Shown piece by piece: positions 1-62,620 of a stretch of 64,000 nt of DNA. The notes under the pieces were generated by a model that was not told the origin of the DNA, ran no database searches, and was given only the letters and a program-made list of their open reading frames with translations. Location: contig CAWJLW010000006.1 of NCBI GenBank assembly GCA_963843795.1, positions 1,798,001 to 1,862,000 of the forward strand. The letters run 5' to 3'. Positions within the stretch are counted from its first letter, which is position 1; every line of letters begins with the position of its first letter. Source of the stretch: an uncultured bacterium. GTDB lineage: Bacteria > Armatimonadota > Abditibacteriia > Abditibacteriales > Abditibacteriaceae. Made by a program: the position numbers and the translations under genes.

Positions 1-1170
1 ACCGGCAAGTACTTGCAGCGCGTTGTGGCGCGATGGCCACAAGCACAAGCTCAAAAACAGCCAGTACGCGGGCACGTCCCAGGTGTTGGTAATCACGAGC
101 GCAGCCATAACTACGCCTGCCAGCCACACGCGCCATGAAAGTGCGCGCGCCAGCCTAAGGGCAAGTCGTTGCCGCGTCGATTTTTCGCTTTTGGGCACTT
201 CTTCAAGTGAAATTGTGCGTGGCTGCATTTGCGCGAACAACGCCCAACCCAGCGATAAAATCAGCAAGCAAACCGGAACTGCGAAATAGTGCGCGTGTAA
301 ATCGGCGTAGGTAAAAGTGAAAAACGGAAATTCGTTGATGGTGTAATTAATGCCGCTACTGTCGCTAATCGGGTTGGGAATCACGCGCGAAGTCGAGAAG
401 TAATCGAGCGGAAGTTCGCCAAACGGCCAGTGGCGCAAACCATTGACATCGGTTTCGATCCATTGGCGCAGCGGTTCCAACGTGCCCAGAATCAAAACCA
501 GAAACGCCGCCACAGCGCCGCGCCGCAAGCGTCCGGTAATCGCACCGGCCAACGACATCAGCAGCGTGAAGCACAGCGCGGGCAGCGTCGCGGCCATCAA
601 ATTGTAAGTCCAGCGAATTGGCGCAGAAATCGCGTCGCTGAGTAAAGCGGTCTGCAAATGGCCCAGATAATAGTAACCGCCCAGCCGCGCGCCCGCGAGG
701 TAAGGATTGGGCGGAGGTAAATGATCGGCGCGCGCGCAGGCACCAATCAGCGCGATATCCATCGGTTTTTCGCCATTGTCAAAATCGGGCCACAAACACC
801 GCAGCGCGAAGAAGATCGCGAAAATTAGCAAAAAAGTCACGTCAATGGCGACGATGGCGCGCAGATGGCGACGCAATTGGGCCAGCAACTCGTTTTTTTC
901 GCACTTCCAGCGCCACAGGGAAAGCGCGGCCAAGAAAATCAGAATGATAGGCGCGAGGCGGACAGGCAAGCCGGCGTTTCCGGCCCAGAACGCACCCAGC
1001 GTCCACAGGGTCAGTAACAAAACGCGACCACACATCCAGCCACCGTCGGGCAAAGTTCCCAGCGTGCTGTCGGCAGAGCGCGCCATCCACAAACGCGCCG
1101 AGAAAGGAAAGGCGATGGGAGCCAGTAGCCACAACAAAAGCAACCAGGAAACGAAAACCGGAATCGGCAT
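1..1170 (-). CDS. DUF2298-like integral membrane protein (partial; continues beyond the window start)
   Basis: Manual translation from ATG 1170 (MPIPVFVSWLLLLW...) reads in one frame through FDNGEKPMDIA, PPPNPYLAG..GYYYLGH and YTINEFPFFTFTYADLHAH, motifs typical of DUF2298 proteins. Absent from the ORF track because no stop lies in the window. Confidence 0.75.
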   Translation of the reverse strand, partial: MPIPVFVSWLLLLWLLAPIAFPFSARLWMARSADSTLGTLPDGGWMCGRVLLLTLWTLGAFWAGNAGLPVRLAPIILIFLAALSLWRWKCEKNELLAQLRRHLRAIVAIDVTFLLIFAIFFALRCLWPDFDNGEKPMDIALIGACARADHLPPPNPYLAGARLGGYYYLGHLQTALLSDAISAPIRWTYNLMAATLPALCFTLLMSLAGAITGRLRRGAVAAFLVLILGTLEPLRQWIETDVNGLRHWPFGELPLDYFSTSRVIPNPISDSSGINYTINEFPFFTFTYADLHAHYFAVPVCLLILSLGWALFAQMQPRTISLEEVPKSEKSTRQRLALRLARALSWRVWLAGVVMAALVITNTWDVPAYWLFLSLCLWPSRHNALQVLAG

Positions 1171-1326
1171 AAATGGGGAGCGGCGCAATCGTAATTTTTG
1201 CGAAATTCGTTCAAATGTCGGTGTGGAACGCGGGAAACGCCCCGCAAGTACTTGCAGGGCGCTTTGGTTGCTATTTCAAACAACGCGTGCGATCAGAATC
1301 GCGCTTATTTTACCAAAACAGTTCCT

Positions 1327-1749
1327 ATGAAGAATTTTCAACTGCTCCCATTTTTGCGTCGCTTGTCTGCTACCGTCTTTATTTTTGCTGGAATTTTCAA
1401 GCTCGGCCTGCTCATTTTTAGTCTTGTTTCACCGTCGCGTTTGCCTTCGTTCACCGCATTATTAGCGACATTGAACGTACCATTTCCCCAAATTTTCGCA
1501 TTCACAGTGCCGCTACTCGAAATCATCGGCGGCGCGCAATTGTGGCGCAAACAACAAGTGCGAATATGGGCGGCGTTGCTAGCGTGCGATATGAGCGTGG
1601 CGATTGCCCTAGTTGGAATTCCCGCGAAATTCGGGCGCGCGCCGAAAATGGGCGCGCTGAGCGTTGGCGGTGAAAGCTGGCGTTTGCCACTGGAAATTGG
1701 CTTGTTGCTGATGTGCTTGTTTCTCGCGCTGCGCAAAAATGCCAAATGA
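1327..1749 (+). CDS. DoxX family membrane protein
   Basis: Small hydrophobic protein with FIFAGIFK...VPFPQIFAFTVPLLEIIGG and a DoxX-like helix pattern. Start placed at ATG 1327. Confidence 0.65.
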   Translation: MKNFQLLPFLRRLSATVFIFAGIFKLGLLIFSLVSPSRLPSFTALLATLNVPFPQIFAFTVPLLEIIGGAQLWRKQQVRIWAALLACDMSVAIALVGIPAKFGRAPKMGALSVGGESWRLPLEIGLLLMCLFLALRKNAK

Positions 1750-1821
1750 TAATGATGGAGTGCAAGTACTTGCACCACGCTTTATAGCCAAAACTGAGCG
1801 CGCGATTTAAACTCGCGCGTT

Positions 1822-2995
1822 ATGTCCACAACTCCTTATCAAATGACGAAAACGCGCGTCGCGATGGACGACGGGCGCACTTTGAACTATTACGATTTCG
1901 CTCCACAAACCCAACAGCCGCCGTTCTTGAAAATCCATCAAGAAGCCGCTGAAAAAAATCCCGCGCCCGGCCCGCGCGTGATGCCCAGCCCGCCCGAAAT
2001 GCGCTGGAATCCAACTCTTGGAGAATGGACGGTTTTCGCGCCCAGCCGCATGAGCCGGGTGCAACTTCCCTCCAAAGATTCGTGCCCATTGTGTCCAGGC
2101 GTCTTGGAATTACCGTTGCCCTATCAGGTCGCGATTTTCGAAAACCGCTCGCCTTCGATGAGCTTTGTGCCACCCGAAGTTTCGTTCGAGCAAGATGAAA
2201 ACACGCTCATCCGTCGCCGTGAACCGGCTCGCGGGCGCTGCGACATCGTGGTGTATTCGCAGGAACACGAAGCGAAAATGGCGCTGATGAGCGTCGAGGA
2301 CATTTTGTGCTTGATCGAAGCATGGCGCGACCGTTACGGCGAACTTATCGCTTTAGACGAAGTGCGAATACGTCTCGATTTTTGAAAACAAAGGCCGCGA
2401 AGCCGGAATGACACTCGACCATCCGCACGGCCAGATTTACGCGTTTCCCTTTCTGCCACCGTTTTTGAAAGCGCAATGGGAAGCGACGCGACGCGCGGCT
2501 GATGACGGCCAGGATTTGTGGTCGCAAATCGTCGAACGTGAATTACAAGACGAAAAGCGCATCATCGCGCAAAGCGAAGGTTTCGTCGCGGGCGTACCGT
2601 ACTATGCGCGCTATCCGTTTGAAGTGCATATCTGGGCGCGCCGCAAAGGCGTTTCGTCGCTGTTACAGATGAACGGGCGCGAGCGCGGCGAGCTGGCGGC
2701 GATGTTGCAGATGATCGTGCGGCGATACGAAAATTTGTGGCCCGATTCGCTGATTGATTTTCCTTCGCTGATGCTGATGCAACAAATCGCAAAACTGGAC
2801 GGCGCGGACGATTTCCGTTTCCATATCGAGTTTTTGCCCTTGCAACGTTCGGAAGAAAAATTGAAATATCGCGCCTCGATTGAAAGCGGAACCGGCACAT
2901 TTCTCAATGATGCGCTTCCTGAAACTCAGGCCGCAGCGATTCAGGCCGCAGCGCCGCATGATTTAGTCATGCCTTCAATTAGCTTTGATGATTAA
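1822..2995 (+). CDS. galT: Galactose-1-phosphate uridylyltransferase (one frameshift near 2365)
   Basis: EMRWNPTLGEW, CPLCP, FENRSP in the 5' ORF, then YVSIFENKG and the catalytic HPHGQ in the +1 frame. Confidence 0.88.
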
Positions 2996-3057
2996 AGCTC
3001 AGCAAAATGTAAAATTGAGCGCTAACACGGTTATAATGAATGCAGGCGCGTAGCAAA

Positions 3058-3087
3058 TTGTGCGCTGCAAGTACTTGCAGCGCACAA
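3058..3087. repeat. 30-bp perfect palindrome centred on the GCAAGTACTTGC core
   Basis: TTGTGCGCTGCAAGT|ACTTGCAGCGCACAA. Confidence 0.9.
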
Positions 3088-3158
3088 ATCACGCATCTCA
3101 ATGAATTTCTGACGGCGAAAGTGTTGCGGCACTAACCGCGCGAGCAAAGGTGTGAATC

Positions 3159-4607
3159 ATGGTGTCCGAGATGGACGCGGGGACGGGAAAAATTGGCTCT
3201 GCCGCGACTTCCGGGCAGCTTGACTTTACGCAGCTTGATTCGCAGCTCGCAGCGGAACAATTCGATGCGAAGCAGCTTTTGGCGCTCGTGCAGAAATTGC
3301 AAGCCGAACTGGGGCATCGAGAGCGTCAAATCGAAGCGATGCAGCACACAGCCGAATCGCTGCTTTCGCAGGCGACTGTCGACGCCATGGTGCGCGAAAC
3401 GCTGGAAATTGCCATTGAAGTTCTCGATGCCGATTCTGGCTCGATACTGCTGCATAACCCGCTCGAAGAAACGTTGGTCTTTCGCTACGCAATCGGCCCG
3501 GCGGCGAATAAGTTGGCGGGTCTGAGCATGCCCGCAGATCAGGGCATTGCGGGGCGCGTTTTCGGCACTGGCCAGCCCGACATCACGCAAAAAGTGGCCG
3601 AAGACAGCGAACACAATCGCGACATCGACGCTCATACCGGCTATCGCACCGAGTCGATGATGACGGTCCCGCTCAAGCGCAATTCGGGCAAAGCCATCGG
3701 TGTGATGCAGGTTTTGAACGCCCGCGAACCGTTCGATGAACTCGATTTAGAAGTACTGCAAGTCATGGCGGCACAGGCCAGTTCGGCAATTGAAAACGCG
3801 CGTTTGATTCAACAGGCGCGTAAAGCCGAAGTGGTTAGCGTGATCGGCGATATTTCACACGATATCAAGAACATGCTAACGCCGATTCAATCCGGTGTAT
3901 GGACGCTGGAACCGATGCTGGACGAAATGTTCCGCTCGCTGGACAACATTCACATCGTGTGCCCGCAGGCCGACGAATATAACAAGCAAATTCGCGAAGC
4001 TGTGGCCATAGTGCGCGAAGATTACGGCTGGATTTTGCAGGCGGCTCTGGGCGCTGCCGAGAAAGTGCAACTGCGCACCAAAGAAATCGCCGACGCGGTA
4101 AAGGGACAAAGCGCGCCGCCCTTTTTCACAGTGGGTAATCTCAACGATGTCGTCAATGAAATCGCGATCTCGCTGCGCCTAGTCGCCCTCGACGCGCGTT
4201 TGGAATTGCACACCGAAATTGAAGAAGATTTGCCAGATTCCGAATTCGACCACAAACAAATTTATAACGCGCTTTATAACCTAACCAATAACGCCATTCC
4301 CGAAACTCCGCCCGATGGAATTATCACCCTTCGCACGAAAAAAATCGACGAAAATCACCTGATGCTTCAAGTGCAGGACACCGGCAAAGGCATTCCCGCC
4401 CAAGTGCGCGAAAGCTTATTCACCGACAACACAATTTCGACTAAAGTCGGCGGCACCGGTCTTGGTACGCGTATCGTCGGAGGCATCGTCGAAAATCACA
4501 GCGGCACTATCACCGTTGAAAGCGAAGAAAATCAGGGCACGACTTTCACTATTATTCTGCCAGTGCGGCATACAGCTCGTTCCAATTCCAATTCAACAGC
4601 AATGTGA
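3159..4607 (+). CDS. GAF-domain sensor histidine kinase
   Basis: GAF (GIAGRVF...DAHTGYRTESMMTVPL...IGVMQVLN), H-box ISHDIKN, N-box NLTNNA, DTGKG, GTGLG. Confidence 0.9.
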   Translation: MVSEMDAGTGKIGSAATSGQLDFTQLDSQLAAEQFDAKQLLALVQKLQAELGHRERQIEAMQHTAESLLSQATVDAMVRETLEIAIEVLDADSGSILLHNPLEETLVFRYAIGPAANKLAGLSMPADQGIAGRVFGTGQPDITQKVAEDSEHNRDIDAHTGYRTESMMTVPLKRNSGKAIGVMQVLNAREPFDELDLEVLQVMAAQASSAIENARLIQQARKAEVVSVIGDISHDIKNMLTPIQSGVWTLEPMLDEMFRSLDNIHIVCPQADEYNKQIREAVAIVREDYGWILQAALGAAEKVQLRTKEIADAVKGQSAPPFFTVGNLNDVVNEIAISLRLVALDARLELHTEIEEDLPDSEFDHKQIYNALYNLTNNAIPETPPDGIITLRTKKIDENHLMLQVQDTGKGIPAQVRESLFTDNTISTKVGGTGLGTRIVGGIVENHSGTITVESEENQGTTFTIILPVRHTARSNSNSTAM

Positions 4608-4711
4608 TAAATTCGCAACCGCGTCTCGACAAATTGCCCTGAACCAACGCCTTGCCTAAATTTTCTTACACAAAGTACTTGACTCTTCACAATTTCTTAT
4701 AATCTTTTTCC

Positions 4712-5896
4712 ATGAACGATTCCGCATCTCCTATCGCCGCTCCCGCTGCTTTGCTTTCCACCGTTTCGGCTTTTCAAAATCAATTTGGCGACGATCAGGG
4801 TGTTTTCACCATCATCGCGCCAGGCCGCGTCAATCTCATCGGTGAACACGTCGATTACAACGATGGGTTGGTTTTGCCGATGGCCGTTTCACTACACACG
4901 GTTTTACGTTTGCGCGCCCGCACCGATAACCTTGTCGATTTATACGCCGTGAATTTCGATGCGCGCGCCAGCTTTGCCATTGACGACTTGGAAAAGCGTG
5001 GCGATTGGCTCGATTACGCGCAGGCCGTCGCGCAGCAGTTGCAACAGAAAGGTTTCGCGGTTGGCGGTTTGGAAGGCGTTATTGAAAGCAACGTTCCCAC
5101 GGCCAGCGGCCTTAGCTCATCGGCAGCCTTTGAAGTCGGAATGGCGCACGCGTTTTTGCACGCGGCAGGCGAAAGCTGCGATCCGATTACAATTGCGCAG
5201 TTATGCCAGCGTGCCGAAAACGAATTTGTCGGCGTTAACTGCGGCATTATGGATCAAACCGCCGTCGCCGCCTGCATTGCCGATCACGCGCTTTTGCTCG
5301 ATTGCCGCTCGCTTGAAACGGAACAGGTGCCATTGAAGTTGGGCGATTATTGCGTTGTAGTAATTGATTCGGGCGCACCGCGCGAATTAGCCAGTTCGGC
5401 ATATAACGAACGCCGCAGTCAGTGCGAAGCGGGCCTGCAAGTACTTGCCGAGCACATCGAAGGCGTGAAATCGCTGCGCGACGTTTCCCCACAGCAATTA
5501 TCCGATCACGCCAGTGAACTGGAGCCGGTTATTTTGCAGCGCGTGCGCCACGTTGTCAGCGAAATTGCGCGCACTCAAGAAGCGGTCGAAGTGTTGCGCA
5601 ACGGCGATTTAGGGCGTTTCGGTCAATTGATGAACGCTTCCCACGATTCGCTGCGCGACGACTACGCGGTTTCAAGCCGTGAATTGGATTGGATCGTTGA
5701 TAAATGTCGCGCGCACGAAGGCGTTTTGGGCGCGCGCATGACCGGAGCTGGTTTCGGCGGCTGCACGATTGCTTTGGTTAAGCGAAAAAACGCACAAACG
5801 TTGGTCGATACGTTGCCCGATGCTTACCAGGCCGCGACCGGCCTCACTGCACGCGCGTGGATTTGTGATGCCGAAGACGGTGCGCGGGTTCTTTAA
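4712..5896 (+). CDS. galK: Galactokinase
   Basis: APGRVNLIGEHVDYN, GLSSSAA, CGIMDQ, GARMTGAGFGG. Confidence 0.95.
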   Translation: MNDSASPIAAPAALLSTVSAFQNQFGDDQGVFTIIAPGRVNLIGEHVDYNDGLVLPMAVSLHTVLRLRARTDNLVDLYAVNFDARASFAIDDLEKRGDWLDYAQAVAQQLQQKGFAVGGLEGVIESNVPTASGLSSSAAFEVGMAHAFLHAAGESCDPITIAQLCQRAENEFVGVNCGIMDQTAVAACIADHALLLDCRSLETEQVPLKLGDYCVVVIDSGAPRELASSAYNERRSQCEAGLQVLAEHIEGVKSLRDVSPQQLSDHASELEPVILQRVRHVVSEIARTQEAVEVLRNGDLGRFGQLMNASHDSLRDDYAVSSRELDWIVDKCRAHEGVLGARMTGAGFGGCTIALVKRKNAQTLVDTLPDAYQAATGLTARAWICDAEDGARVL

Positions 5897-6024
5897 CAGA
5901 AGGTAGGAGGCAGCGAAACGCAGCAGGTAAAATGTGGAGCTACCGCTTAAGCTTCACGGTACGCAGAGTACTTGCCGAGCACATTTCTCCCTTTTTCTGC
6001 CTTCCAGTTTTCACCTTGCCAAAA

Positions 6025-7875
6025 ATGAAACGCGCGCGCTGGATGGATTTCGCTACGATTGCCTTGTTTTCATCGCTTCTGTGCACGCTCTTGTGGCACT
6101 CTCAGCAGCCAATTTTGCGCAGCGTCGATAACTTGTTATTCGATTTTTATTTCCGAGCGCGCGGCCCTGTGCCGCCGGCGGAAATTGAAAAACTGCCGCA
6201 AACGCGCGACATCGTGGTCGTGCAAAGCACTCATCAATTGCCGCGCCCGCTACTGGCTAAACTCATCGACAAACTGCGTTTGGCGCGCGTGGTCGCGCTC
6301 GACTTTATGCTAGTCGATGATCAGAAGAATTTCGCTCCCGACGAGGCGCGCTGGTATCAAAGTGAAATTAAACGTTGGAAAACGGAAACCGAAGTTCTCA
6401 CACGTGCGGTCCAAAAACATGGACGCGTAATTTTAGTGGCGTGGCCCGAAGAAAATTCCACACTCAACTTGCAACCGCTCGCCACTGCGCCACAAATCTC
6501 GACGCAAAATTCGACGCATTTGGTGTGGCGCCATCCGCCCGACGCACTGTGGCGGGCAGCAGGCGCGCACTGCCATCCGATTATTCAAAGTCAGGGCGGT
6601 GTAGCGCGACGTGTGAACTTGCTGCAAAACATCGCGCCGTCCGGAAAAATACCGCAAAACGTGCCGTGCATGGGTTTGGCCTTGGCCGCCCTGAGCCAGC
6701 ATCAAACGCCCGCACAATGGTTGCGCGCGCATCCCGAAATTTCGACCGATGCGCCCATCATGCTGAATTGGCTGGGCAGTCGCGAAACCTTTGGACAACT
6801 CTCGAATTCGATTGGCTACACGCAGGTTTTGGATTTGTGGGAAGCCGAAGATTTCAAGGATAAAATCGTCATCATCGGCGAAGTTTCGCGCCAGAGCAAG
6901 GAAATTGTCCTCACGCCATTCGGCGAAACTCCCGCGCTCCAAGCCCACGCAACGGTTTTGGCCACGCTGCTCGACCCGCGCGGGCCGCCACGCAATTCAA
7001 CTTCGCTTCAATTATTTTTCCTATCGCTGGTCGGCAGTTCGCTTTTGATGTTGCCCTTGCTGCGCTGGCCGCTGTGGATAAGCTTTGTGTGGACGGGCCT
7101 TTTAATTTTGGGCTTCATTATCGGCGGCGCTTGGCTGTTTTCAGCACGCCATCTGGTCTTAGAAGGCAGCGCGCCAATTGCCTCGTGCCTTCTGACTTTG
7201 AACTGCATCGCGCTTTACGAATACTGGCGCACTCGGAACACTCTGGGCCGCTTCATCGGCAGCGAAATGTTGAAGCGCGTTTTGCATCCGTTGGAACAAT
7301 TAAAAGTTGGCGGGCGCGAAGAAATTGCAACCGCGATGTTTTGCGATTTGCGCGGCTATTCGACGCTTTCCGAAGCCATCGCACCTGCGCAAGCCACACA
7401 ACTTTTGAACGCTTATGTCACGCTTTTGCTGCGTGTAATTACCAAACACGGCGGGCGAGCGATTGATTATCAGGGCGATGGCGTTTTCATTTTGTTTGAA
7501 AGCGACCTGGCTGGAACCGACCACGCGCAAGGCGCAGTGCGTGCCGCATTGGAAATTGCCGACGAATTTCGCGCGTTCAACCGCATTTGGCGCGACATCG
7601 TGCACAGCGAATTGGAAGTGGGCATCGGCCTGGAATGTGGCCCGATGCTAATCGGTGTTCTAGGTTCGCAAGACCGCATTCATCTGGGTGCCGTCGGCGA
7701 TGCGGTCAATGTGGCCGCGCGCGTGCAAGCCTTATCGAAAACGTTAGGCAGCACAATTTTAATTACCGAAAACGTGCGCGAACGCCTGGGCGACGAATTT
7801 CGCTTGCAGGAGCACGGTGAACATCTGGTGAAAGGCCGCAGCCAAAGCGTGCAACTGTTTTCGGTTTGTGAATGA
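6025..7875 (+). CDS. CHASE2-domain adenylate/guanylate cyclase
   Basis: N-terminal TM, CHASE2-like region (DFYFRARG...LPRPLLAKLIDKL...VVALDF), three TMs, class III cyclase (FCDLRGYS, YQGDG, GDAVNVAARVQ, VKGR). Confidence 0.88.
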   Translation: MKRARWMDFATIALFSSLLCTLLWHSQQPILRSVDNLLFDFYFRARGPVPPAEIEKLPQTRDIVVVQSTHQLPRPLLAKLIDKLRLARVVALDFMLVDDQKNFAPDEARWYQSEIKRWKTETEVLTRAVQKHGRVILVAWPEENSTLNLQPLATAPQISTQNSTHLVWRHPPDALWRAAGAHCHPIIQSQGGVARRVNLLQNIAPSGKIPQNVPCMGLALAALSQHQTPAQWLRAHPEISTDAPIMLNWLGSRETFGQLSNSIGYTQVLDLWEAEDFKDKIVIIGEVSRQSKEIVLTPFGETPALQAHATVLATLLDPRGPPRNSTSLQLFFLSLVGSSLLMLPLLRWPLWISFVWTGLLILGFIIGGAWLFSARHLVLEGSAPIASCLLTLNCIALYEYWRTRNTLGRFIGSEMLKRVLHPLEQLKVGGREEIATAMFCDLRGYSTLSEAIAPAQATQLLNAYVTLLLRVITKHGGRAIDYQGDGVFILFESDLAGTDHAQGAVRAALEIADEFRAFNRIWRDIVHSELEVGIGLECGPMLIGVLGSQDRIHLGAVGDAVNVAARVQALSKTLGSTILITENVRERLGDEFRLQEHGEHLVKGRSQSVQLFSVCE

Positions 7876-7899
7876 TGCAGCAAGTACTTGCAACACGCT

Positions 7900-9120
7900 T
7901 CAGCGCCGTGTCACTTCATCATAAACCTGTAAGGTCATTTGCGCGGTTTGCGCCCACGAATAATGGGCGGCAAATTCGCGCCCGCGTGCGCGCAAATCTT
8001 CGCGCAAATTATTATCTTCCAAAACACGAGCAATGCTTTGTGCCAAATCGTTGCTGTTGTGCGGATCGATAATCAACGCGGCAGTTTCCAAATTTTCCAA
8101 AGGCACGCGATTGCTGGCGATGACCGGCGCACCGCACGCGAGAGCTTCCAATACCGGTAAACCGAAACCTTCGACGAAAGAGGGGAAAATCATCGCTTCG
8201 CATAGCGCGAATAAAAACGGTAATTCTTCGCGCGGCATGAAATCTAACACCAAAGTTTGCACGGCTGAAATTTGGTGGAATGGCACGATAGCATCGGTTG
8301 CAACGGCCTCGCCAGAACCCAAAGCGCGCTGCATTTGCGGCGGAGCTTGATCGTAGGTGTTGGGCAGTTGATAATCTTCCCAAGCGCGCGCGCCGCCGGT
8401 GGCAACGAGTGGAATTGAACGTAGATGTGGAGGCAATTGCTGCATCGCTTCAACAATCGACGTCACATTTTTCTTCGGTTCGGGATTGCCGACAAATAAT
8501 AGGAAGCGCGCAGGCAAACCCAAACGTTCGCGCGCACCTGCTAATTCCGACACGGAAAAGGTGCGCCGAAACCATTCTTCGACACCCAGCGGAATCATGC
8601 GAGTTTTGTCTTGCGCGTCAGGAATACGCCGCGCAATTTCGCGGGCGACAAACGCACTGGGCACGATAACGCAGTCGGCGCGACGCGCGCTACGGGGTAG
8701 CAATTGACTGTAGTGCAACCGGTTGGCAATCGTCACAAATTGCGGGTGCGAAAGGGCTATGAGATCGTAGATTGTCAAGACAATCGGCAGTGGCGCGTGC
8801 AGCGGGCAAACGTAAGTCGGGCAATGTAAAAGGTCGCAACCATCGCGGCGCGCTTGCAGCGGTAGTTGCATTTGCTGCCACGCGATGCGGCGCGCTTTAT
8901 GTTCGCCGCGAAAACCCAATCGCACAAAACGCCAATTCAAACCGAACACCTGCAATTGAGCGGGCGCAGGCCCATCGTGCGGCAAATAAACCGTCCAACG
9001 GCGCGCGGGCACGGTGCGTTTTAATTCCAATTCATTCTGTGCCAGCAGTAAATTCCATAGCGATAATTCCACACCGCCGAACTTGCCGTATAACGCGGTG
9101 CCATCGATGCCGATTGTCAT
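7900..9120 (-). CDS. GT4 family glycosyltransferase
   Basis: TIYDL, FVGNPEPKKN, FPSFVEGFGLPVLEALACG. Confidence 0.9.
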   Translation of the reverse strand: MTIGIDGTALYGKFGGVELSLWNLLLAQNELELKRTVPARRWTVYLPHDGPAPAQLQVFGLNWRFVRLGFRGEHKARRIAWQQMQLPLQARRDGCDLLHCPTYVCPLHAPLPIVLTIYDLIALSHPQFVTIANRLHYSQLLPRSARRADCVIVPSAFVAREIARRIPDAQDKTRMIPLGVEEWFRRTFSVSELAGARERLGLPARFLLFVGNPEPKKNVTSIVEAMQQLPPHLRSIPLVATGGARAWEDYQLPNTYDQAPPQMQRALGSGEAVATDAIVPFHQISAVQTLVLDFMPREELPFLFALCEAMIFPSFVEGFGLPVLEALACGAPVIASNRVPLENLETAALIIDPHNSNDLAQSIARVLEDNNLREDLRARGREFAAHYSWAQTAQMTLQVYDEVTRR

Positions 9121-54125: not shown

Positions 54126-54176
54126 AATCTTTTCTGTTTTGAATAACGCAATTTTCGACGTGCCAAATCAGTTACA

Positions 54177-54214: not shown

Positions 54215-54220
54215 CACTTT

Positions 54221-55264
54221 CTAGCTTAGAGTTTCATGCGCGTGGCGCAGAATGCGTTCCGTCGCTTCCCAATTCAAACACGCGTCAGTAATGCTGACGC
54301 CGTATTTCAAATCGTCCAAGTTATCGGGCAGTGGTTGATTGCCTTCGTGCAGATAGCTTTCGATCATCAAGCCAATCATCGCTTTGTTGCCTTCGGCGCG
54401 CTGTTGAACGGCGCTGCGCGCGACTTCTTCCTGACGCGCGTGTTTTTTCAGGCTGTTAGCATGGCTGCAATCGACCATCAGCGAAGAATTTTGCCCTTCT
54501 TTTTCCAGCGCCTCGACTGCTTCGGCTAAACTTTTCTCATCATAGTTGGTGCGCGCGCGACCGCCGCGCAACACGATGTGCCCATCGGCGTTGCCGCGGG
54601 TGCGGATGATCGAAGTCAAACCGTCCTGGTCGATGCCGAGAAAACTGTGCGGAGCGCGCGCCGCTTGCATCGCATCCAAGGCGATTTGCAAACCGCCATC
54701 CGTCCCATTTTTGAATCCGACTGGCATCGAAAGCCCGCTCGCCATCTGTCGATGGGTTTGCGATTCGGTCGTACGCGCACCAATGGCCGCCCAACTCACT
54801 AAGTCGGCGATATATTGTGGCACGACGGCATCGAGAAACTCGGTCGCTGCGGGCAAACCCATTTCGGTAATATCGAGCAGCAAACGCCGCGCGCGCGCCA
54901 GTCCGGTTTCGATATCCGAGCTGTTATCGAGATGCGGATCGTAAATCAAACCTTTCCAACCGACCGTCGTGCGCGGCTTTTCAAAATAGACGCGCATGAT
55001 GATGCACAAACGGTCGTTCAATTCTTCGCGCAGTTTGCTGAGTTTTTCGGCATATTCGAGCGCGCCTTTGACATCGTGAATCGAGCACGGCCCGACTACA
55101 ACCAGCAAGCGCGAATCTTCGTGACGCAAAATGCGCTGTACATCGGTACGCCCTTCGACAACAACACGATTGGATTGCAGGCTGGCAGGCAAAGCCTCTT
55201 TTAACGCGCGCGGAGACGACAAGAGCACGGTTTCAACAACATTTAAATCTTGAGTGGGTAACAT
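54221..55264 (-). CDS. 3-deoxy-7-phosphoheptulonate (DAHP) synthase, class I-alpha (AroF/G/H family)
   Basis: [56 protein letters not shown]. Confidence 0.95.
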
Positions 55265-55360
55265 ATATTTGGGTAATCTATTTTGGTCTATCACATCCAG
55301 ACCACTCAAGATGAAAATCTCTGCAAAACGCTGTGCTGGTCCTTGCACAAAACTACGTTT

Positions 55361-56719
55361 TCAACGCCGCAATTGTCGCGAATTTAAGCGGTCCATGAAT
55401 TCGCTATATGGCAAGCTCAAGCCATAATCCAGCGGGTCGCGATTGTTGGCGCGGCGCGCATTTTCTTCCTGTCGGCGTGCTGCAAGTACTTGCAGCATGG
55501 CATCGCAGCGTGCGGGGAATTGGGCGGCCACGTTGTGCTTTTCTTCGGGGTCGTTTTTCAAATCGAATAGCAAAGGTTGATTGTCGCGCGGGTTGCCGTA
55601 GATGTCCACCAGAGCGCGGCCCTCTGCGGTTTGCGATAGTGGCAGAATGAGTTTCCAATCGTGCGTGCGCAGTGCGATGGAGCATTGGCGCGTTGATTCC
55701 ACGCTGAGAATCGAATCGCGTCCGCTGAAGTTTTCGCCTTGCAAAGCGGGCGCGAAGCTTTGGCCGGTTAATTCGTAATTCGGCGACGATAATTCGCAGC
55801 ATTCGATTAAAGTTGGCAGAATGTCTTCGTGCGAAATGAGCGCGTTGCAGGTACTTGCAACGCGCTTTTCGGGTGTTTTCCATAGCAAAGTGAGTCGCGT
55901 GATGGCGTCGTATAAACCGTGATGATCGAAATAAACGCCGCCTTCGCCGAACGCTTCGCCGTGATCGCTAAGCGCGATGAGATGCGAATTGTCCCACAGA
56001 TTTAATCCTTTCAGCGAAGCGAATAAACGTCCGCAGTGATTATCGACATACGAAATTTCGCCATCGTATTGCGCGACGACGTAATCATAATCGTCTTGCA
56101 CTTTCAATTTCATATCGCCCAGAAACGCCTGATAATATTCGGGCGCGTGTTCTATCGCCGCGCTGTAGCGCGCATTGGTATCGGCTTGTGGCTGATAGTG
56201 CATCGTATCGAAAGGCGCGGGCGGGCTGTAGGGCGAATGCGGATCCCATAAATGTAGCCACAAGAAAAACGGTCGGTCTTGCAACTGTTGGCAATAAGAA
56301 ATCGCGCGGTCGGTGAGCTGTTCGCCCTGATTGGAAAACGGCTGATAGAGGAAGCTGGAATAATAATCGAAACCGCGCGAAAACCAGCCGCCGCGCCCGT
56401 GCGCCTGCGTCGCCAAGTTGTCGATGGCGACCGTGACGTAACCGGCATCTTTGGCCAGTTGCGCCAAAGGCTGAATTTCGGGAGCCAAACGTTGCTCGCT
56501 GGCGTGCGCGGTGATGCCGTGACGCAGCGGATGCAAGCCGCTCATCAAAGTGGTGAAGCTCGGCATCGTCGGAATGCCCGCCGCAAACGCGCGTTCGAAA
56601 CGCACAGATTCAGTGGCCAGCGCGTCCAAATTGGGCGAAGTGTTGCGCCCGTAACCGTAACAGCCCAGATGATCGGCGCGCAAACTGTCTATCGTCAAGA
56701 GAACGATGTTGGGTTTCAT
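55361..56719 (-). CDS. Sulfatase-like hydrolase (Thr at the nucleophile position)
   Basis: IDSLRADHLGCYGY, PTMPSF, WDPHSPY, YDGEI, SDHGE, HHGLY. Confidence 0.85.
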   Translation of the reverse strand: MKPNIVLLTIDSLRADHLGCYGYGRNTSPNLDALATESVRFERAFAAGIPTMPSFTTLMSGLHPLRHGITAHASEQRLAPEIQPLAQLAKDAGYVTVAIDNLATQAHGRGGWFSRGFDYYSSFLYQPFSNQGEQLTDRAISYCQQLQDRPFFLWLHLWDPHSPYSPPAPFDTMHYQPQADTNARYSAAIEHAPEYYQAFLGDMKLKVQDDYDYVVAQYDGEISYVDNHCGRLFASLKGLNLWDNSHLIALSDHGEAFGEGGVYFDHHGLYDAITRLTLLWKTPEKRVASTCNALISHEDILPTLIECCELSSPNYELTGQSFAPALQGENFSGRDSILSVESTRQCSIALRTHDWKLILPLSQTAEGRALVDIYGNPRDNQPLLFDLKNDPEEKHNVAAQFPARCDAMLQVLAARRQEENARRANNRDPLDYGLSLPYSEFMDRLNSRQLRR

Positions 56720-56732
56720 AACAGGGAACGAA

Positions 56733-56764
56733 AAATCACGCTGCAAGTACTTGCAGCGTGATTT
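56733..56764. repeat. 32-bp perfect palindrome on the repeat core between the two sulfatase-like genes
   Basis: AAATCACGCTGCAAGT|ACTTGCAGCGTGATTT. Confidence 0.9.
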
Positions 56765-56786
56765 CTGGGAGTTTAGCGGGTTTCGT

Positions 56787-58332
56787 TTACTCGTTCTCGA
56801 CTTCGACGTAACCGTGCAACGGCGCGCCGCTTTGGTCTTGCGCCGTGTTGCCCGCCGCTTGATTATCGGATGACGAATTTTCGCCTTGCGTGTTATCGAC
56901 TTCGACTTCATCGGTCGAATTCAATTCTTCGGGTTTGGGAATCGCGGCGGCTTCTTTGGGCGCGCGCAGATGGAGCGGCGTCGCGCCCGCACCAGGCGTT
57001 TCGCCTTCGATTGGCGTGCCGATGCGCGTGCCGCAACGTCCTTGCTCGATAATCGGGTCGAGTTCGCGACCAGTTTCACGCAAACGCTTTTCCAGCCACG
57101 CATTCAACTTTCCGCTTAAAACTTCGACAATCTCGGGACGGTCTTCGGCGATGTTGTTTTGTTCGGTCGGGTCAGCTTCCAAATCGAACAATTCCTGCAT
57201 CGGTCGCCCGTGTGGGTCGGGTTCATACGCCTGAATGAACTTCCATTTGTGGTCGCGATACGCGCGCTTCACTTCCCACGTCGCTTCCGACAAAAACAGC
57301 TCGTCGTAGTTTTCATCGCGCTCGCCTTCGATACACGGCACCAGACTTTTGCCTTCCAAAGTTTGCATGTTTTCTATCTCGGATAGACCGCTGAGCTCAA
57401 AGAAAGTCGGTAGAAAGTCAACGTTTTGCACGAAGCCCGGAACGCGTTTGCCAGCGGGCAAAGTGCCCGGTTGCACCATGATGAGCGGGACGTGAATATC
57501 TCCTTCATACAAACCGTGATGGTCGTAAAAGCCCAACTGCTCGTCCAGAATCTCACCGTGATCAGCAGTAAAAACCACCAGCGTATCCTCGCGCACATCT
57601 TCCAGCGCGTCCCAAATGCGGCGCAAATGGTCGTCCATGTAACGCGTTTCGGCATCGAAAAGCGCGTTCACGTATTCCGTACCGGTCACGCCGGGCATCC
57701 AATCGTGGAAATACCATTTGAACATTTCGTCGTTCCACGCCGCGTCCATCGAATGATTATTCACGTCATACGGATCGTTTTTCGTGATATCGTAGAACAT
57801 TTCGCGATACGGGCTGGGCGGCAGATACGGCGTGTGCGGGTCCCAGTAATGCAGAAAACAGGAAAAACGGTTTGTCGTCGTTTTTCGCGCCCGCTTTCAA
57901 GGTTTCAATAAGCGGCAACGCCATATCGGTGACGTGTTCGGCGCGACGCAAAGTCAGCGGGTCGCTGCGATCCCATTCCGGCACCAGATAATGCTCGAAA
58001 CCGCGCGGAAAGTGGCGTCCCATCGTATCGACCGCGCCAGTTTGCCAGCCCTGACTTTGCAAAATTTCCGGCAACAGTTGCACGCCGTCTTTAATCGGCA
58101 CGCCGCCGCCGATATTCACAATGTCGTGCGTAATGGCTTCAGTTCCGGTCAGCATCGTGGTGAAGCTGGGATGCGTGGGAATATTAGGCGCGTAGCATTT
58201 TTCAAACAGCACGCCCTGCTCGGCCATCGAATCCAAAAACGGCGACGTGTCGCGCCCAGTTTTGGCTTTGTAGCCGTAGCAGCCCAAATGATCGGCGCGC
58301 TGCGTATCTAAAGCGATTAAAACGATATTCAT
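56787..58332 (-). CDS. Sulfatase-like hydrolase (Thr at the nucleophile position; frameshift near 57855)
   Basis: DTQRADHLGCYGY, PTHPSF; after the shift HYWDPHTPY, ADHGE, HHGLY, ELFDLEADP. Confidence 0.85.
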
Positions 58333-58350
58333 AATTCACTCTTTTGTATG

Positions 58351-58477
58351 AACCACAGAGAACACAAACAGCACAAAGAGCTCAGGAATTTTTATAGAAA
58401 AACGAATTTAAGGCGCGGCAAGTACTTGCCGAACCAAAATCCCAAAAATCTCTGTGAACTCTGCGTCCTCTGTGGTT
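58351..58477. repeat. Small inverted-repeat element (AACCACAGAG...CTCTGTGGTT) enclosing a core palindrome
   Basis: Perfect 10-bp terminal inverted repeats followed by imperfect CACAGAG-like iterations; GCAAGTACTTGC at 58418 inside. Confidence 0.65.
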
Positions 58478-58484
58478 GATTGAT

Positions 58485-59486
58485 TCAAATTTGCGGCACG
58501 TCTTCGACACTGTTGTTCTGATACGAACGAATCGCGGCTTCGATGACTTCTTGGGCGGCCAAGCCTTCTTTGCCAGTCGCAGTTTTCAGTTCGCCCGCGC
58601 TCACTTCATCGACGAAGCTGCCAATGCGATTCTTGAACGTGTCATTAAAGCTGCCCATGCCACCCATGATGCCGTTGTGCCATGAGCGCACACCCGGATC
58701 TTCACGCGGAAAAAAGTCCAAGCGCTCGTAAACGTTTTCGATGACGCCGCGACCTTTGGTGCCCACGACTTCGCAGCGCTCAATCGGATGATGACCCGAT
58801 GCGTCGTAGCTGCCGGTCAAATGGCCTAACGCACCGGACGTGAACTGCAAGTTCATCGATAAGTTGCTCAAGCATTTGCGTTCGCCCGAAGCGTGCATAA
58901 AACATTGCACGCGCGCCACATCGCCGCCGAAAAAGCGCATGACATCAATAGAATGTGCGTGCAGGGCACGAATGTGGAACCACGGCGAACTTTCATTGGG
59001 ATTGTTAATCCATAGTGTCATATTCAGCAGTAGCAAATCGCCCAGTTCGCCATCGTTTTGCATCTGCTTCAAACGCGCTGCCATCGGCGTGAAACGATGA
59101 TTGAGATTGATGCCCAGCATGACGCCTTCTTCGTCAGCAGTTTTGACCATTTCGCGCGCCTGTTCGATGTCGTTGGAAATTGGCTTTTCGCACAAAACAT
59201 GCTTGCCCGCTTTCAAGCATTGTATTGTCGGCTCGTAGTGGTGCGAACCGTTTTCAACGCCCGCTGTCGCCACGCTGACCGCGTCTAAATCTTCATTCTT
59301 CAATAAATCATCGACCGAATAATACGCCTTCACTCCAAATTGTGCCGCAGCGGCATCGGCGCGTTCTTTATCCATGTCGCAAACCGCCAATAATTGCGCG
59401 CCTTTATGACCTTGATACTGTCCGCAATGATTGCGGCCAATCCCGCCCGCGCCAATAACCGCGACTTTCAATGGTGAATTTTCCAT
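58485..59486 (-). CDS. Gfo/Idh/MocA oxidoreductase
   Basis: GAGGIG, CEKP, NLNHRF. Confidence 0.9.
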   Translation of the reverse strand: MENSPLKVAVIGAGGIGRNHCGQYQGHKGAQLLAVCDMDKERADAAAAQFGVKAYYSVDDLLKNEDLDAVSVATAGVENGSHHYEPTIQCLKAGKHVLCEKPISNDIEQAREMVKTADEEGVMLGINLNHRFTPMAARLKQMQNDGELGDLLLLNMTLWINNPNESSPWFHIRALHAHSIDVMRFFGGDVARVQCFMHASGERKCLSNLSMNLQFTSGALGHLTGSYDASGHHPIERCEVVGTKGRGVIENVYERLDFFPREDPGVRSWHNGIMGGMGSFNDTFKNRIGSFVDEVSAGELKTATGKEGLAAQEVIEAAIRSYQNNSVEDVPQI

Positions 59487-59540
59487 AATTTCCTCTAACT
59501 TTTGCTCGTTGTGCCCTGCAAGTGCTTGCAGGGCGTTTGA

Positions 59541-60344
59541 TTAAGCTGCCTCAATATCCTTCAGACAACACGATAGATAACCGCGCGCTTGTGCGCACAG
59601 CGCGACTGAGCGCGGTAAATCGTAGGCTTGCGCGCCGATGATTTCTAAATTCAGCGGCCCGTTATAGCCAATAGAATTCAGCGATTGAAGAATTTCTTTC
59701 AGATCGAGCGCGCCGTTGCCCGGCACTTGCTGTTCGGGCGTTCCGGGCGGTCCTGGCACACGAACCGGACAATCGCGAAAATGGCTGGTGACAATCCACT
59801 TGTCCCAGCGCGGCGCAACTGCCGATGGATTGTCATCAGCGCGCGCTAAATGACTGGGATCGAAATTTAAACCCACCGAGCCTTGCGGAACTTTTCCATC
59901 AAGTTCTTCCATCAAACGCAAACCTGTATTGGCATTGTAAATCGCTTGCCCAACGTGCGGCTTGACGGCTAATGTCACTCCCGCATCGGCCGCCATGCGG
60001 GCAAACTCGCCCATCAATTCAATGGATTCGACCGTAGAGTTTTCGTCGCCAGTTTTACCACCGCTGCCAATATTGACAATTGGCACGCCGATTTCCGCGG
60101 CCAGAGCGAAAATTCCCTGCAAGCGTTCACGGTCATTAGTGGCGGCCTCAATTGCGGTTGCTTCGAGCTCAAAACGCTGCAGCAGTTCGCGAATTACGCC
60201 CGCGTTGTCACCAAATTTGATGTGTTCGGCCATGCCCGCAATCGCGGCTAACTCGACGTACTTGTATCCCGACCAAGCCACGCACTGCAGCGCTTGCTCT
60301 AAAGCCGCCGCGCCCAAAATAACCGTATTCATGCCCAATTTCAT
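59541..60344 (-). CDS. Sugar phosphate isomerase/epimerase (IolE/XylA-like TIM barrel)
   Basis: YVEL, KPH, LNFDPSH, HFRD, PGNG..D, LEI. Confidence 0.8.
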   Translation of the reverse strand: MKLGMNTVILGAAALEQALQCVAWSGYKYVELAAIAGMAEHIKFGDNAGVIRELLQRFELEATAIEAATNDRERLQGIFALAAEIGVPIVNIGSGGKTGDENSTVESIELMGEFARMAADAGVTLAVKPHVGQAIYNANTGLRLMEELDGKVPQGSVGLNFDPSHLARADDNPSAVAPRWDKWIVTSHFRDCPVRVPGPPGTPEQQVPGNGALDLKEILQSLNSIGYNGPLNLEIIGAQAYDLPRSVALCAQARGYLSCCLKDIEAA

Positions 60345-60392
60345 AACGTTTTCCCTTTGATTCAACGCTGCAAGTACTTGCAGCACAGATTT

Positions 60393-61478
60393 CTATAAGT
60401 TCACGCGCGTCCCGCTTTGCGCGCTTTGATAGGCTGCCAAACACATCGCAACACTGACTTTTCCGTCGCGCGCGTTCGCCGCATTTTCGGATTGCGTTCT
60501 GTTCAGCAAATCATCAATCCAAGGCCGCACAATCGCTTTCAAACGCTCGTAATGCGAAATGGGTAAGTCGTGCCGAAATGATTCCCACTGGCTATCCAAT
60601 TTGCGGAACAATTTCAACGCGATGGCATCGTTTGGCGCGTGCGGCGTGGAAACGCCATCGTCCCAATTCTGAATAATTACGCCTTGGTCGCCGTAAATTT
60701 CGCAGGTGTTTTCGCCCGCCAAAGTCACGCTGCTGTTGCACAAGCTCGCCATGCTGCCATCGGCCCAGCGATAAATCGCCAAGCCGGTATCATCGGGCGC
60801 GATTGTCGTGAGAACGTTGCCGATTTCGGCCATCACAGAAACCGGCGCGCCTTGCAACCAATAGAGAAAATCCGCCGCGTGAACCGCATCATCGAAAAAC
60901 ATTCCGACATTTTGCACGGGGTCGATGTGCCACGCTTGCGGGCTGTGCGGCAGTTGGTCGTTGAACAGAAAATTGATACAGTGGCGGCGGCGCAGCAAGT
61001 TCACGCGCCCGACTTCGCCGTTTTCAATCCAACGCTTGATTTGCAAGTTCAGCGGGTCGGTGCGCATTTGAAACGCCATCTGAAACGGCACACCCGCGTT
61101 TTCGACGGCTTGGATGATGCGCTCGCAATCTTCCAGCGTGGTCGCCATCGGCTTCTGACACAGAATCGCTTTGCCCGCAGCCGCCGCCAATTCGATTAAA
61201 TCGGCATGGCGATTGGTTTCGCTGGTGATAATTACGGCATCAATATCGGGGCGTGCCAGTAGCTTTTCGGCGCTATTTTCAAATTGCAAACCGAAGCGTT
61301 CGCAGTGCGGGCGCGCGCGTTCGGAGTCGCTGTCCCACGCGGCAAGTACCTGCGCGTCCGAAAACGTCGCGATTTGGTCACAATATGCGACGGCGTGGCC
61401 GTGCGCAAAACTCAAAATTCCAATTCCCAGCGGCGCGTTGAACGAAGTACTGAACTTCGCATTGTCTTTTGGGTGCAT
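60393..61478 (-). CDS. Gfo/Idh/MocA oxidoreductase
   Basis: LSFAHGH, LCQKP, AFQMR, DDAVH. Confidence 0.85.
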   Translation of the reverse strand: MHPKDNAKFSTSFNAPLGIGILSFAHGHAVAYCDQIATFSDAQVLAAWDSDSERARPHCERFGLQFENSAEKLLARPDIDAVIITSETNRHADLIELAAAAGKAILCQKPMATTLEDCERIIQAVENAGVPFQMAFQMRTDPLNLQIKRWIENGEVGRVNLLRRRHCINFLFNDQLPHSPQAWHIDPVQNVGMFFDDAVHAADFLYWLQGAPVSVMAEIGNVLTTIAPDDTGLAIYRWADGSMASLCNSSVTLAGENTCEIYGDQGVIIQNWDDGVSTPHAPNDAIALKLFRKLDSQWESFRHDLPISHYERLKAIVRPWIDDLLNRTQSENAANARDGKVSVAMCLAAYQSAQSGTRVNL

Positions 61479-61560
61479 AAATGCAGCATAACCTTCTGGC
61501 CGCACTCGGTCTACGATGGAAGCGCTTGCTCTATGGGGGCGATGCTGCTATTTTCTAAGC

Positions 61561-62550
61561 ATGAAATCTCTCGCCGCGCCCAAGCCTAGCGTGCCGCATT
61601 TGCGCGCTCAACAGCATTTCGCAGCCAATTTCCCCTTTCATATTGCCGATGTTTTGCAAGGCCCATTATACGAGCATTCGCACGAATTTTTCGAAGTGGT
61701 TTACGTGCGGCGCGGACGTGGCGAACATCTTCTCAACGGTCGCAACTACGCCCTGAAAGCGGGCGATTTGTACCTCATTCGGCCTGGCGAAATCCACGCC
61801 TATGCGCCGCTACCACATCAGCAAATGCGCATCACGAATGTGCTATGGATGCCCGCTTTGACCGAGCGTTTGTGGCAAACGCAGGAATTCATCGGAAGCG
61901 CCACATGGCCCGCTTTAGACTTTCTGGCACCCGCCAAAATTCAGCACGATTCACCCCACAGCGCAGCGCATTTTTCGCCACGGTTGCATCTTTCGCCGCG
62001 CGCCGCTTATCGCGTGGAAACGCTTTTAGACGAAATGCGACGCGAACAAAACAGCGGCGCGCCCGGCTGTCAGGCGTTGCTGTGCCACTTGTTTTGTACC
62101 TTGATGATTCTGCTGTCGCGCGAATGGCAAAAACAGAACGCCGCCTCTGCGACAAACAGCGCTGCAAGTACTTGCAGTGCGCAAAAATCGCAAACTGCCG
62201 CACCGCACGAACGCGGCGATGTGGTCGGCGAAGCGATTGCGTGGATCGAAGAAAATTATGCGCGTCCGGTGCGCGTTTCTGATGTAGCGTCTCATGTTGC
62301 TCTCAGTGCGAGCCGATTGTCGCATGTTTTCAAAGAGCGCACAGAGCGCGGCGTCATCGAATATCTGCACGAATATCGCATCGCGCGCGCGGCGCGATTG
62401 CTGTGCGAAACATCCCAAAGCGCGCAAAATATCGCGCAACAAACCGGCTTCGGCGACGCGCGCTTTTTTCATCGCTTGTTTCGCCGTCACACCGGCTGCA
62501 CGCCAGCCCAATTTCGCCGCCAATTCCAAGATACCGAGATTTTGGGTTGA
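61561..62550 (+). CDS. AraC family transcriptional regulator (cupin + HTH)
   Basis: HSHEFFE cupin; SRLSHVFK, RIARAARLL, GFGDARFFHRLFRRHTGCTPAQFR. Confidence 0.92.
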   Translation: MKSLAAPKPSVPHLRAQQHFAANFPFHIADVLQGPLYEHSHEFFEVVYVRRGRGEHLLNGRNYALKAGDLYLIRPGEIHAYAPLPHQQMRITNVLWMPALTERLWQTQEFIGSATWPALDFLAPAKIQHDSPHSAAHFSPRLHLSPRAAYRVETLLDEMRREQNSGAPGCQALLCHLFCTLMILLSREWQKQNAASATNSAASTCSAQKSQTAAPHERGDVVGEAIAWIEENYARPVRVSDVASHVALSASRLSHVFKERTERGVIEYLHEYRIARAARLLCETSQSAQNIAQQTGFGDARFFHRLFRRHTGCTPAQFRRQFQDTEILG

Positions 62551-62620
62551 ATTGGTGCGCTGCAAGTACTTGCAGCGCGCAATTCGTGCGGCAAGCGCGC
62601 AAATATCACACACTATTCTT

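Follow-up and report, generated by a model that had tools for sequence, protein, structure and literature searches.

A strict 12-bp palindrome iterated throughout an Abditibacteriaceae genome as a candidate species self-signature

Copies of the palindrome and their gene context

The window analysed here is a stretch of 64,000 nt (contig CAWJLW010000006.1, positions 1,798,001 to 1,862,000) on the 3.6-Mb main contig of an uncultured bacterium of the family Abditibacteriaceae, phylum Armatimonadota (genome G000, 53% G+C). One of its proteins has named homologues in Abditibacterium utsteinense (77%) and in an Abditibacteriaceae bacterium, which suggests the same family. Among its genes lie numerous copies of a 12-bp palindrome, GCAAGTACTTGC. 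An initial annotation, made from the letters of the window, had claimed 40 perfect copies and about ten near-copies, 28 of the perfect ones intergenic and 12 coding, and had likened the word to the highly iterated palindrome HIP1 and the DNA uptake sequence (DUS). Exact matching recovered the 40 perfect copies between positions 5 and 62573 (none in 100 shuffles), starting at 5, 1244, 1762, 3067, 5437, 7880, 9153, 9221, 12486, 12642, 13972, 17560, 18572, 19289, 20894, 21227, 24555, 28693, 29864, 30394, 32213, 34186, 36316, 36823, 38268, 38998, 39180, 39711, 42943, 43416, 46459, 48127, 51219, 54190, 55482, 56743, 58418, 60370, 62164 and 62562. Nine copies with one mismatch (shuffle mean 0.11) lie within 14734..61353 and start at 14734, 26737, 34890, 34900, 49828, 52964, 55847, 59518 and 61342; those at 34890 and 34900 overlap, forming a single longer palindrome. 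Our own gene calls changed the split slightly to 29 intergenic and 11 coding copies. The latter (span 5..62175) start at 5, 5437, 12486, 13972, 19289, 21227, 36316, 38998, 39180, 55482 and 62164, and eight of them are read in the Gln-Val-Leu frame. The copy at 5437..5448 (plus strand) falls in the galactokinase gene and has no extended hairpin (z +1.1), and that at 19289..19300 (minus strand) lies just upstream of the prepilin cleavage motif of a pilin-like gene (18594-19340).

The enrichment seen in the window extends to the whole genome. In 4.3 Mb, 2,567 perfect copies were counted, compared to 0.2 and 0.65 expected under first- and third-order Markov models, respectively, and along the main contig all 36 full 100-kb bins contain 30 to 83 copies each. 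Such over-representation of a palindrome by orders of magnitude throughout a genome is typical of HIP1-type words. The word is also strict: all 36 one-mismatch forms together account for 506 copies genome-wide, and on the main contig palindromes shuffled from its letters have, on average, 0.3 perfect and 11 one-mismatch copies. Masking of GCAAGTACTTGC left no further iterated long word in this genome. An assembly artefact is ruled out because dense occurrences of the same or related words in the fragmented assemblies of relatives and in metagenome contigs, as well as the frame bias of coding copies, agree with the count. In the searched literature, outside which lay subscription journals, REBASE and bioRxiv supplements, no description of GCAAGTACTTGC was found, in line with the initial view that it matches no known word; the related spellings occurred there in unrelated papers only, and nothing on this family was found among the papers listed. 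An 18-mer query scan of the genome contigs gave at least seven single chance matches among the matches listed.

Gene context was derived from a simple gene caller of our own, which returned 3,515 genes in an assembly with many split genes. The 2,559 copies classed in this way comprise 777 in coding sequence (30%), 1,228 in co-directional, 292 in convergent and 260 in divergent gaps, and 2 at edges, 70% of copies thus being intergenic. Density is highest in convergent gaps (4.5 per kb), followed by co-directional (3.2) and divergent gaps (1.9) and coding sequence (0.21), and 279 of the 434 convergent gaps hold a copy. The reading frames of coding copies are distributed 507/150/120. Concordantly, the tripeptide QVL occurs 948 times in the genome compared to 278 for LVQ, and KYL 319 times compared to 77; 566 of the 948 QVL are written in motif codons, in spite of GTA being used least among the Val codons. 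Both the frame bias and the excess of such tripeptides are features of uptake sequences.

Copies are spaced more evenly than by chance, with a coefficient of variation of 0.89 compared to 1.18 in a null model that keeps gene structure, and 38 gaps longer than 5 kb instead of 138. Moreover, coding density depends on the adjoining intergenic gap: at matched distance from gene ends it is 0.147 per kb if the gap holds a copy and 0.259 per kb if it does not (98 and 106 copies, p 3e-5). The two longest stretches free of GCAAGTACTTGC, 26.5 and 25.7 kb, are insertion-sequence-rich islands, in which transposase-like and type I restriction-like genes were recognised by eye. About one strict copy per 1-2 kb, evenly spaced and sparse in foreign DNA, is the distribution that characterises an uptake sequence.

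Phased flanks and hairpins

Beyond about 16 bp the flanks had been taken as unrelated between copies, which is not the case. The near flanks share a loose symmetric consensus, GC-rich over about 6 bases and followed by a T tract at +8 to +11. Further out, A/T dinucleotides repeat with a 10.5-bp period on either side, out to at least about 70 bp, with peaks at 14.5, 25.5, 35.5, 46.5, 56.5, 67 and 78.5 bp from the centre. The amplitude of this phasing declines from 0.050 (22-54 bp) to 0.015 (54-96 bp) and 0.010 (96-128 bp). It is 0.045 for copies deep in coding sequence and 0.053 where the nearest tract is missing, compared to 0.003-0.010 at control sites (GTAC, GATC, TGCA and GCGC away from the motif, and A-tract-anchored sites) and at most 0.0095 at random sites. 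Neighbouring copies 18-130 bp apart are themselves in helical phase (142 pairs, p 3e-9). In several relatives the arms agree in phase with those of G000, with amplitudes of 0.023 in G001, 0.037 in G009, G015 and G019, and 0.026 in G012 (few sites). The arms are probably a trace of DNA being bent or wrapped by a protein around a two-fold axis.

Many intergenic copies are extended by self-complementary arms of 8-33 bp. Arms of at least 8 bp occur in 182 of 292 convergent, 284 of 1,228 co-directional, 22 of 260 divergent and 9 of 777 coding copies, where shuffles lead to expect 7.7, 2.9, 0.2 and 0.2, respectively. Armed copies peak 20-30 bp past a stop codon, and 565 of the 620 perfect palindromes in the genome with arms of at least 12 bp are centred on the motif. 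Five hairpin copies in the window fold into stems that end in a GUAC loop (z -5.8 to -7.5). The one at 18560..18595 is a perfect hairpin between convergent genes, which carries the motif at its tip and A and T tracts at its base and thus resembles a two-way terminator (z -7.4). A second perfect hairpin with the motif at its tip occupies the convergent gap after typA (28680..28717, z -6.5). The motif likewise forms the tip of a hairpin 3' of a GGDEF gene (30383..30416, minus strand, z -7.5) and of hairpins in the convergent gaps at 39700..39733 (z -6.3) and 51207..51242 (z -5.8). Other copies with self-complementary arms, of 9-14 bp, start at 3067, 32213, 36823, 46459, 48127, 54190 and 56743 (3058..56764). 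The motif is probably also used as a terminator, in a secondary role. At 18 places on contig C6 of G000 (e.g. 373245, 741191 and 2705917) the 12-mer is duplicated head to tail with a spacing of 12 or 13; these duplications are mostly centred in perfect hairpins and perhaps reflect slippage or cruciform processing.

Dialects, small elements and candidate proteins

The survey of related genomes suggested initially gave a mixed answer. Exact GCAAGTACTTGC is not iterated in any of 40 relatives (0-3 copies each), while six related genomes carry other spellings, all of which contain GTAC. The dialect is CAAAGTACTTTG in G001, which belongs to the same genus, TCGAGTACTCGA in G009, G015 and G019, the looser CGAGTACTCG in G012, and in G006 GTACGGTCGA, which has 2,981 copies and occurs mostly as an inverted pair. 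Six genomes have 750-1,230 AGTACT per Mb. In most of the rest of the family GTAC is almost purged: 14 of the 17 genomes in genera g2 and g5 are down to 1-33 AGTACT, and outside the family this hexamer does not exceed about 200 per Mb (109 phylum genomes). In these two genera (e.g. G005, G042 and G022) GTAC and CTAG words are nearly gone, with 1-5 AGTACT in 4-6 Mb; the purge is relaxed in the clade of G010, G021 and G023, and families f11 and f34 also purge AGTACT. No GTAC clusters at dnaA were found in the 3.2-kb loci of purging genomes. Like the phased arms and the terminator use, the dialects and this purge had escaped the initial annotation.

In a trigger-factor tree of 24 genomes, G001 missing, motif genomes form one clade with moderate support (83/84), inside which the motif-free G017 is nested; no motif was found in 98 kb sampled from G017. 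A repeat array between short genes in this genome (G017:C44:100001-120000) resembles integron cassettes by eye.

A metagenome scan added 54 loci, of which 39 stem from close relatives (group A) and 15 from small mobile elements (group B). After removal of two duplicates, the 37 group A loci used cover 603 kb at 64% median protein identity and have a looser dialect, NCAAGTACTTGN. In codon alignments, the columns opposite coding copies are free of gaps in 33 of 36 cases in G001 (396 kb of 3.1 Mb compared), 50 of 55 in group A and 19 of 21 in motif-free genomes. Accordingly, the initial view of a sequence word rather than a copied element was confirmed. In G001, AGTACT occupies the corresponding columns at 6 of 36 sites, in that genome's own spelling; matched for amino acid the figures are 6 of 13 compared to 24 of 364 (p 2e-4), with 90 of 497 at columns with differing residues. 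Group A has AGTACT there at 27 of 55 sites, or 27 of 33 compared to 153 of 1,309 when matched (p 2.5e-19), and samples of genus g6 at 1 of 8, which is not significant. Ungapped alignment and conserved columns together indicate that sites arise by substitution, not insertion, and are kept even across a change of dialect, beyond what codon or amino-acid constraint would preserve, as in HIP1-type words.

Group B carries 83 perfect copies in 80.6 kb. Four of its contigs are closed circles: L282 (13 copies in 8.9 kb) and L289 (17 in 12.2 kb) reach 1.4-1.5 copies per kb, L277 has 3 copies and L256 has 1. L282 and L289 encode a D5-type primase-helicase and helix-turn-helix (HTH) proteins, L289 also a tape-measure-like protein, and homologues at 47-68% lie on contig C8 of G000. 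An element family of 9-13 kb with primase-helicase, HTH and tape-measure-like genes includes L282, L289, L262, L288, L267, L287 and C8:5000-12000 of G000. L256, a 6.1-kb circle, and its relative L294 carry one motif copy each, and three open reading frames tested had no Pfam match. A viral collection held no relatives of the two circle primases; viral contigs with the G000 dialect amounted to six loci with single copies, and among 80 of the 119 viral loci found with the G009 dialect only three had two copies. The HK97-type portal PF04860 was found in 0 of 7 motif-bearing family genomes, compared to 11 of the 20 others (one-sided p 0.013, with kin not independent). Transformation may cure prophages, and few portals in motif genomes are as expected if it does. 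A signal for a gene transfer agent or phage packaging would call for conserved head-tail genes in motif genomes; the two families searched, portal PF04860 and tape measure PF20155, gave 0 of 7 and 0 of 5 and do not bear it out.

The initial annotation had pointed to orphan methyltransferases of GTAC or AGTACT. G000 has a single PF01555 methyltransferase (C6:2517365-2518135), of the beta class and adenine type and with no nuclease beside its gene, and no match to PF00145 (C5) or PF02086. Of 27 family genomes, 22 have an orthologue, which is broken in two; all 7 with the motif are among them. At 1e-40, the 83 other phylum genomes gave none; in 15 genomes the enzyme is present without the motif. 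Its tree does not track the motif, the closest orthologue (75%) being that of the purging genome G020. The nearest solved structures are M.RsrI and M.BceJIV (GTWWAC). With these and CcrM, likewise orphan beta-class adenine methyltransferases, it shares the order of DPPY before FxGxG, the solitary gene and family-wide conservation (PMC11380664), but it is only about 35% identical to them, and the base-contact residues of M.BceJIV are not clearly kept in the alignment. In genus g2, the ratio of the GTAC hexamer to its control is 0.006-0.05 where the enzyme was found and 0.02-0.38 where it was not (p 0.003). This contrast corresponds to about two losses on the tree, and the CTAG hexamer behaves alike in five of five genomes tested. 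The lead held as regards an orphan enzyme common to all motif genomes, which is a candidate writer; that GTAC is its target we put at less than even odds, CTAG fitting equally well. A site of a type II restriction-modification system would be avoided and have its nuclease gene beside that of the methyltransferase, whereas here no such gene is present and the site is enriched in G000. HARE-HTH-Mrr was rejected as the cognate nuclease, lying directly upstream of the methyltransferase in only three genomes, all of them purging (L122, L135 and L136 in G005, G014 and G041), and the R.PabI family was found in 0 of 31 genomes in a search without positive control.

Competence machinery, as an uptake sequence would need, is in place: G000 has ComEC, ComEA, DprA and RecA and a type IV pilus cluster at C6:385-403 kb, and across genomes ComEC was found in 10 of 10, ComEA in 9 of 10 and DprA in 29 of 31. 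Loss of competence was considered for G017 and rejected: DprA was not found in this 84% complete genome, but ComEC and two ComEA are present. Matches to one minor pilin turned up in 28 of 31 genomes, irrespective of the motif. The neighbourhoods of the methyltransferase, comEC, comEA, dprA and gyrA revealed no shared candidate reader, and the MutL endonuclease motif was not found with the one pattern used.

A self-signature and its alternatives

Taken together, we give a probability of about 50% to the explanation that the palindrome is the core of a species self-signature for DNA uptake or recombination, spread by molecular drive like the uptake signal sequence (USS), DUS and HIP1. A two-fold symmetric reader would bind the 12-mer and bend or wrap its flanks, which we propose as the cause of the A/T tracts every 10.5 bp on both sides. 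DNA bearing a copy would be taken up, protected or recombined more often, so that mutations creating or improving copies would spread and old copies would be retained; as one copy per fragment would suffice, new copies would gather where none is near. Shifts in the preference of the reader would change the letters flanking a fixed AGTACT/GTAC core and thereby give rise to dialects, and copies behind genes would later have been extended into terminator hairpins. Of the four functions that the initial annotation had listed without a choice (uptake, recombination, methylation and nucleoid-protein signal), the evidence thus favours a species-specific signature with a protein that binds the centre and bends or wraps the arms; the proposed lineage-specific signal itself stood, with selection or drive added to it.

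Neisseriaceae DUS, which the pilin ComP reads, comes in dialects that share a fixed core and is also used in terminators, but there a terminator needs an inverted pair and no flanking motif is present. Like GCAAGTACTTGC, the Pasteurellaceae USS (Hin and Apl types) stands at about one copy per 1-2 kb, keeps a strict core and varies in dialect, with two dialects divided by subclade; its A/T-rich flanks are helically spaced, and it biases reading frames and inflates tripeptides. It differs in being non-palindromic, in having flanks on one side over about 30 bp and in that uptake is shown, which for GCAAGTACTTGC is a proposal (PMC1626085, PMC2817400). The traits reported there for USS and DUS are the same as those listed here. 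HIP1 (GCGATCGC) and alternative cyanobacterial palindromes share palindromy, thousands of copies, origin by substitution, conserved positions, regular spacing, lineage variants, a 4-bp methylation-type core and the lack of a known reader (PMC4390886, PMC5861425, PMC13756078). Unlike HIP1, GCAAGTACTTGC belongs to another phylum, has 12 bp with a GTAC core, no C5 methyltransferase found, mainly intergenic copies, long phased arms, terminator use and a core purged in sister genera; phased arms are not reported for HIP1 in the available parts of these three papers. Nor is it HIP1 proper, which is GCGATCGC with C5 CGATCG and Dam-like methylation in cyanobacteria: CGATCG is avoided in G000 (ratio 0.2). 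In its strictness, the evenness of its spacing, with diminishing returns, its biased frame, its dialects, its use in terminators and its helical A/T flanks, GCAAGTACTTGC has the profile of an uptake sequence (PMC2817400, PMC1626085), and in its palindromy, conserved positions and methylation-type core that of HIP1, which when methylated is reported to raise transformation (10.1101/2024.09.10.611283). The motif works like HIP1 and USS and is a member of neither.

Several observations weigh against a self-signature. Competence genes are equally present in motif-free relatives, G017 included, and among the proteins examined no sequence-specific receptor such as ComP was identified; the minor pilins of the pilus cluster have a net charge of -3 to -5 instead of being basic. 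Neither USS nor DUS is palindromic, and the flanks of USS extend over about 30 bp, not at least 140 bp. Arm phasing does not rise above the null limit in group A (0.009) and was not seen in G006 (58 arms), and the central GTAC is no better protected than its flanks in one-mismatch copies. Gaps inside the 12 aligned columns (3/36, 5/55 and 2/21) are somewhat above the background of 2.9%. The circles were found by a motif search, which biases their density upward by at least one copy each; two of them carry only 1 and 3 copies, and the small contigs of G000 itself, at 74-500 per Mb, are below chromosome level. The portal contrast depends on one family model and on kin.

To our knowledge, the marking of a genome with one strict word in thousands of copies is confined to three bacterial groups, and the reader of HIP1 is still not known after thirty years. 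We tentatively suggest that, after DUS, USS and HIP1, the motif is a fourth independent self-signature of bacteria, without precedent in Armatimonadota. Its palindromic core would be methylated and form one wrapped unit with about 140-250 bp of DNA in helical phase, read by a hypothetical protein; lineages would amplify the core in dialects or purge it, and small circles would mimic the host dialect for entry or persistence. The phased arms are a physical clue to the reader of a kind that HIP1 has lacked. At least five spellings in one clade, a nested loss, purging sister genera and tiny circles in host spelling provide built-in contrasts, and a whole-proteome comparison across these genomes could name the reader. 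The word may be a key to transforming this hard-to-culture group.

Much of the same evidence could be read as a positioning site for a sequence-specific protein that wraps at least about 140 bp and organises the chromosome and resident plasmids, spacing and conservation then following from selection on chromosome structure. A/T peaks out to 78.5 bp with one continuous phase across the centre are a nucleosome-type register, and the phasing in coding copies (0.045), in copies without the nearest tract (0.053) and between neighbouring copies fits such wrapping; a structural role has been proposed for HIP1 (PMC5861425, PMC13756078). We nevertheless regard this as unlikely, though the leading alternative: 20 of 27 family genomes do without such a word, 26-kb stretches are free of it, close species differ in dialect, the marking of 2,600 places would need a far less strict site, and the histone fold PF00808 was found in 0 of 5 genomes.

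In a methylation-directed repair ratchet, Elhai's model for HIP1, nicks at methylated GTAC would lead to fixation of nearby mutations toward the palindrome, the copies being a by-product that needs no function. The orphan methyltransferase in all seven motif genomes, the GTAC in all dialects and the rarer GTAC hexamer in g2 genomes with the enzyme are what it predicts, as is regular spacing (PMC4390886), and the 66 copies with an extra base described below, which resemble long-read errors, are a weak hint of modification. The 15 genomes with enzyme but without motif, the identical pattern of CTAG and the origin of the g2 contrast in about two loss events detract from it. Since, in addition, the model needs a C5 methyltransferase, none of which was found in G000, and leaves phased arms and conserved positions unexplained, we consider it rather improbable.

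Of still lower standing is a cytoplasmic, Chi-like mark of self, which would guard the cell's own DNA from an end-resecting or anti-plasmid machine and steer recombination, resident plasmids copying it to persist. Chi sites are polar and strand-biased, whereas this word is a palindrome with symmetric arms, and no such machine could be tied to it. Scarcity in newly acquired islands, density in some small circles and the few prophage portals speak for such a mark, and a role of this kind has been suggested for HIP1 in a bioRxiv abstract.

A terminator, or a REP/MITE-like element spread by copying, would account for the 279 occupied convergent gaps, the 182 armed copies in them and the 565 motif-centred palindromes, as well as for the inverted pairs of G006, and with REP/BIME elements the motif shares intergenic hairpins behind genes. 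As the sole cause this is largely refuted and very improbable: the 777 coding and 260 divergent-gap copies are nearly all without arms, arms differ from copy to copy so that no stem is shared, 30% of copies lie in frame inside genes, and origin by substitution in conserved columns contrasts with insertion as a block. Strong DNA gyrase sites, with the centre as cut site and arms wrapping the GyrA C-terminal domains, can practically be dismissed, despite one gyrA and one gyrB in G000, the peak density in convergent gaps and a symmetric gyrase motif of 130 bp with 10.75-bp periodic arms (PMC6379681), because the A/T profile is anti-correlated with the centred E. coli matrix (r -0.48; Table DS10, PMC6379681), the matrix peaks at 18.5, 29.5 and 39.5 compared to 14.5, 25.5 and 35.5 here, r reaches only about 0.4 in both arms at a 5-bp offset, and gyrase is degenerate at its centre.

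Some irregularities of the assembly were noted in passing. In 66 copies of G000 (e.g. C6:396804) one extra base is present at the centre, compared to none in 1,047 dialect copies of relatives; if it is ignored, a long frame opens in 12 of 65 copies (3 before). These probably are long-read consensus errors at the motif centre, and they weakly hint at base modification. A 289-base homopolymer run at C6:529518 is likely an assembly artefact. In the window, galT, ppc, a mannosidase gene, a sulfatase gene and holA are split, probably by assembly frameshifts, at 1822-2995, 43638-46436, 51257-52967, 56787-58332 and 62606-63801.

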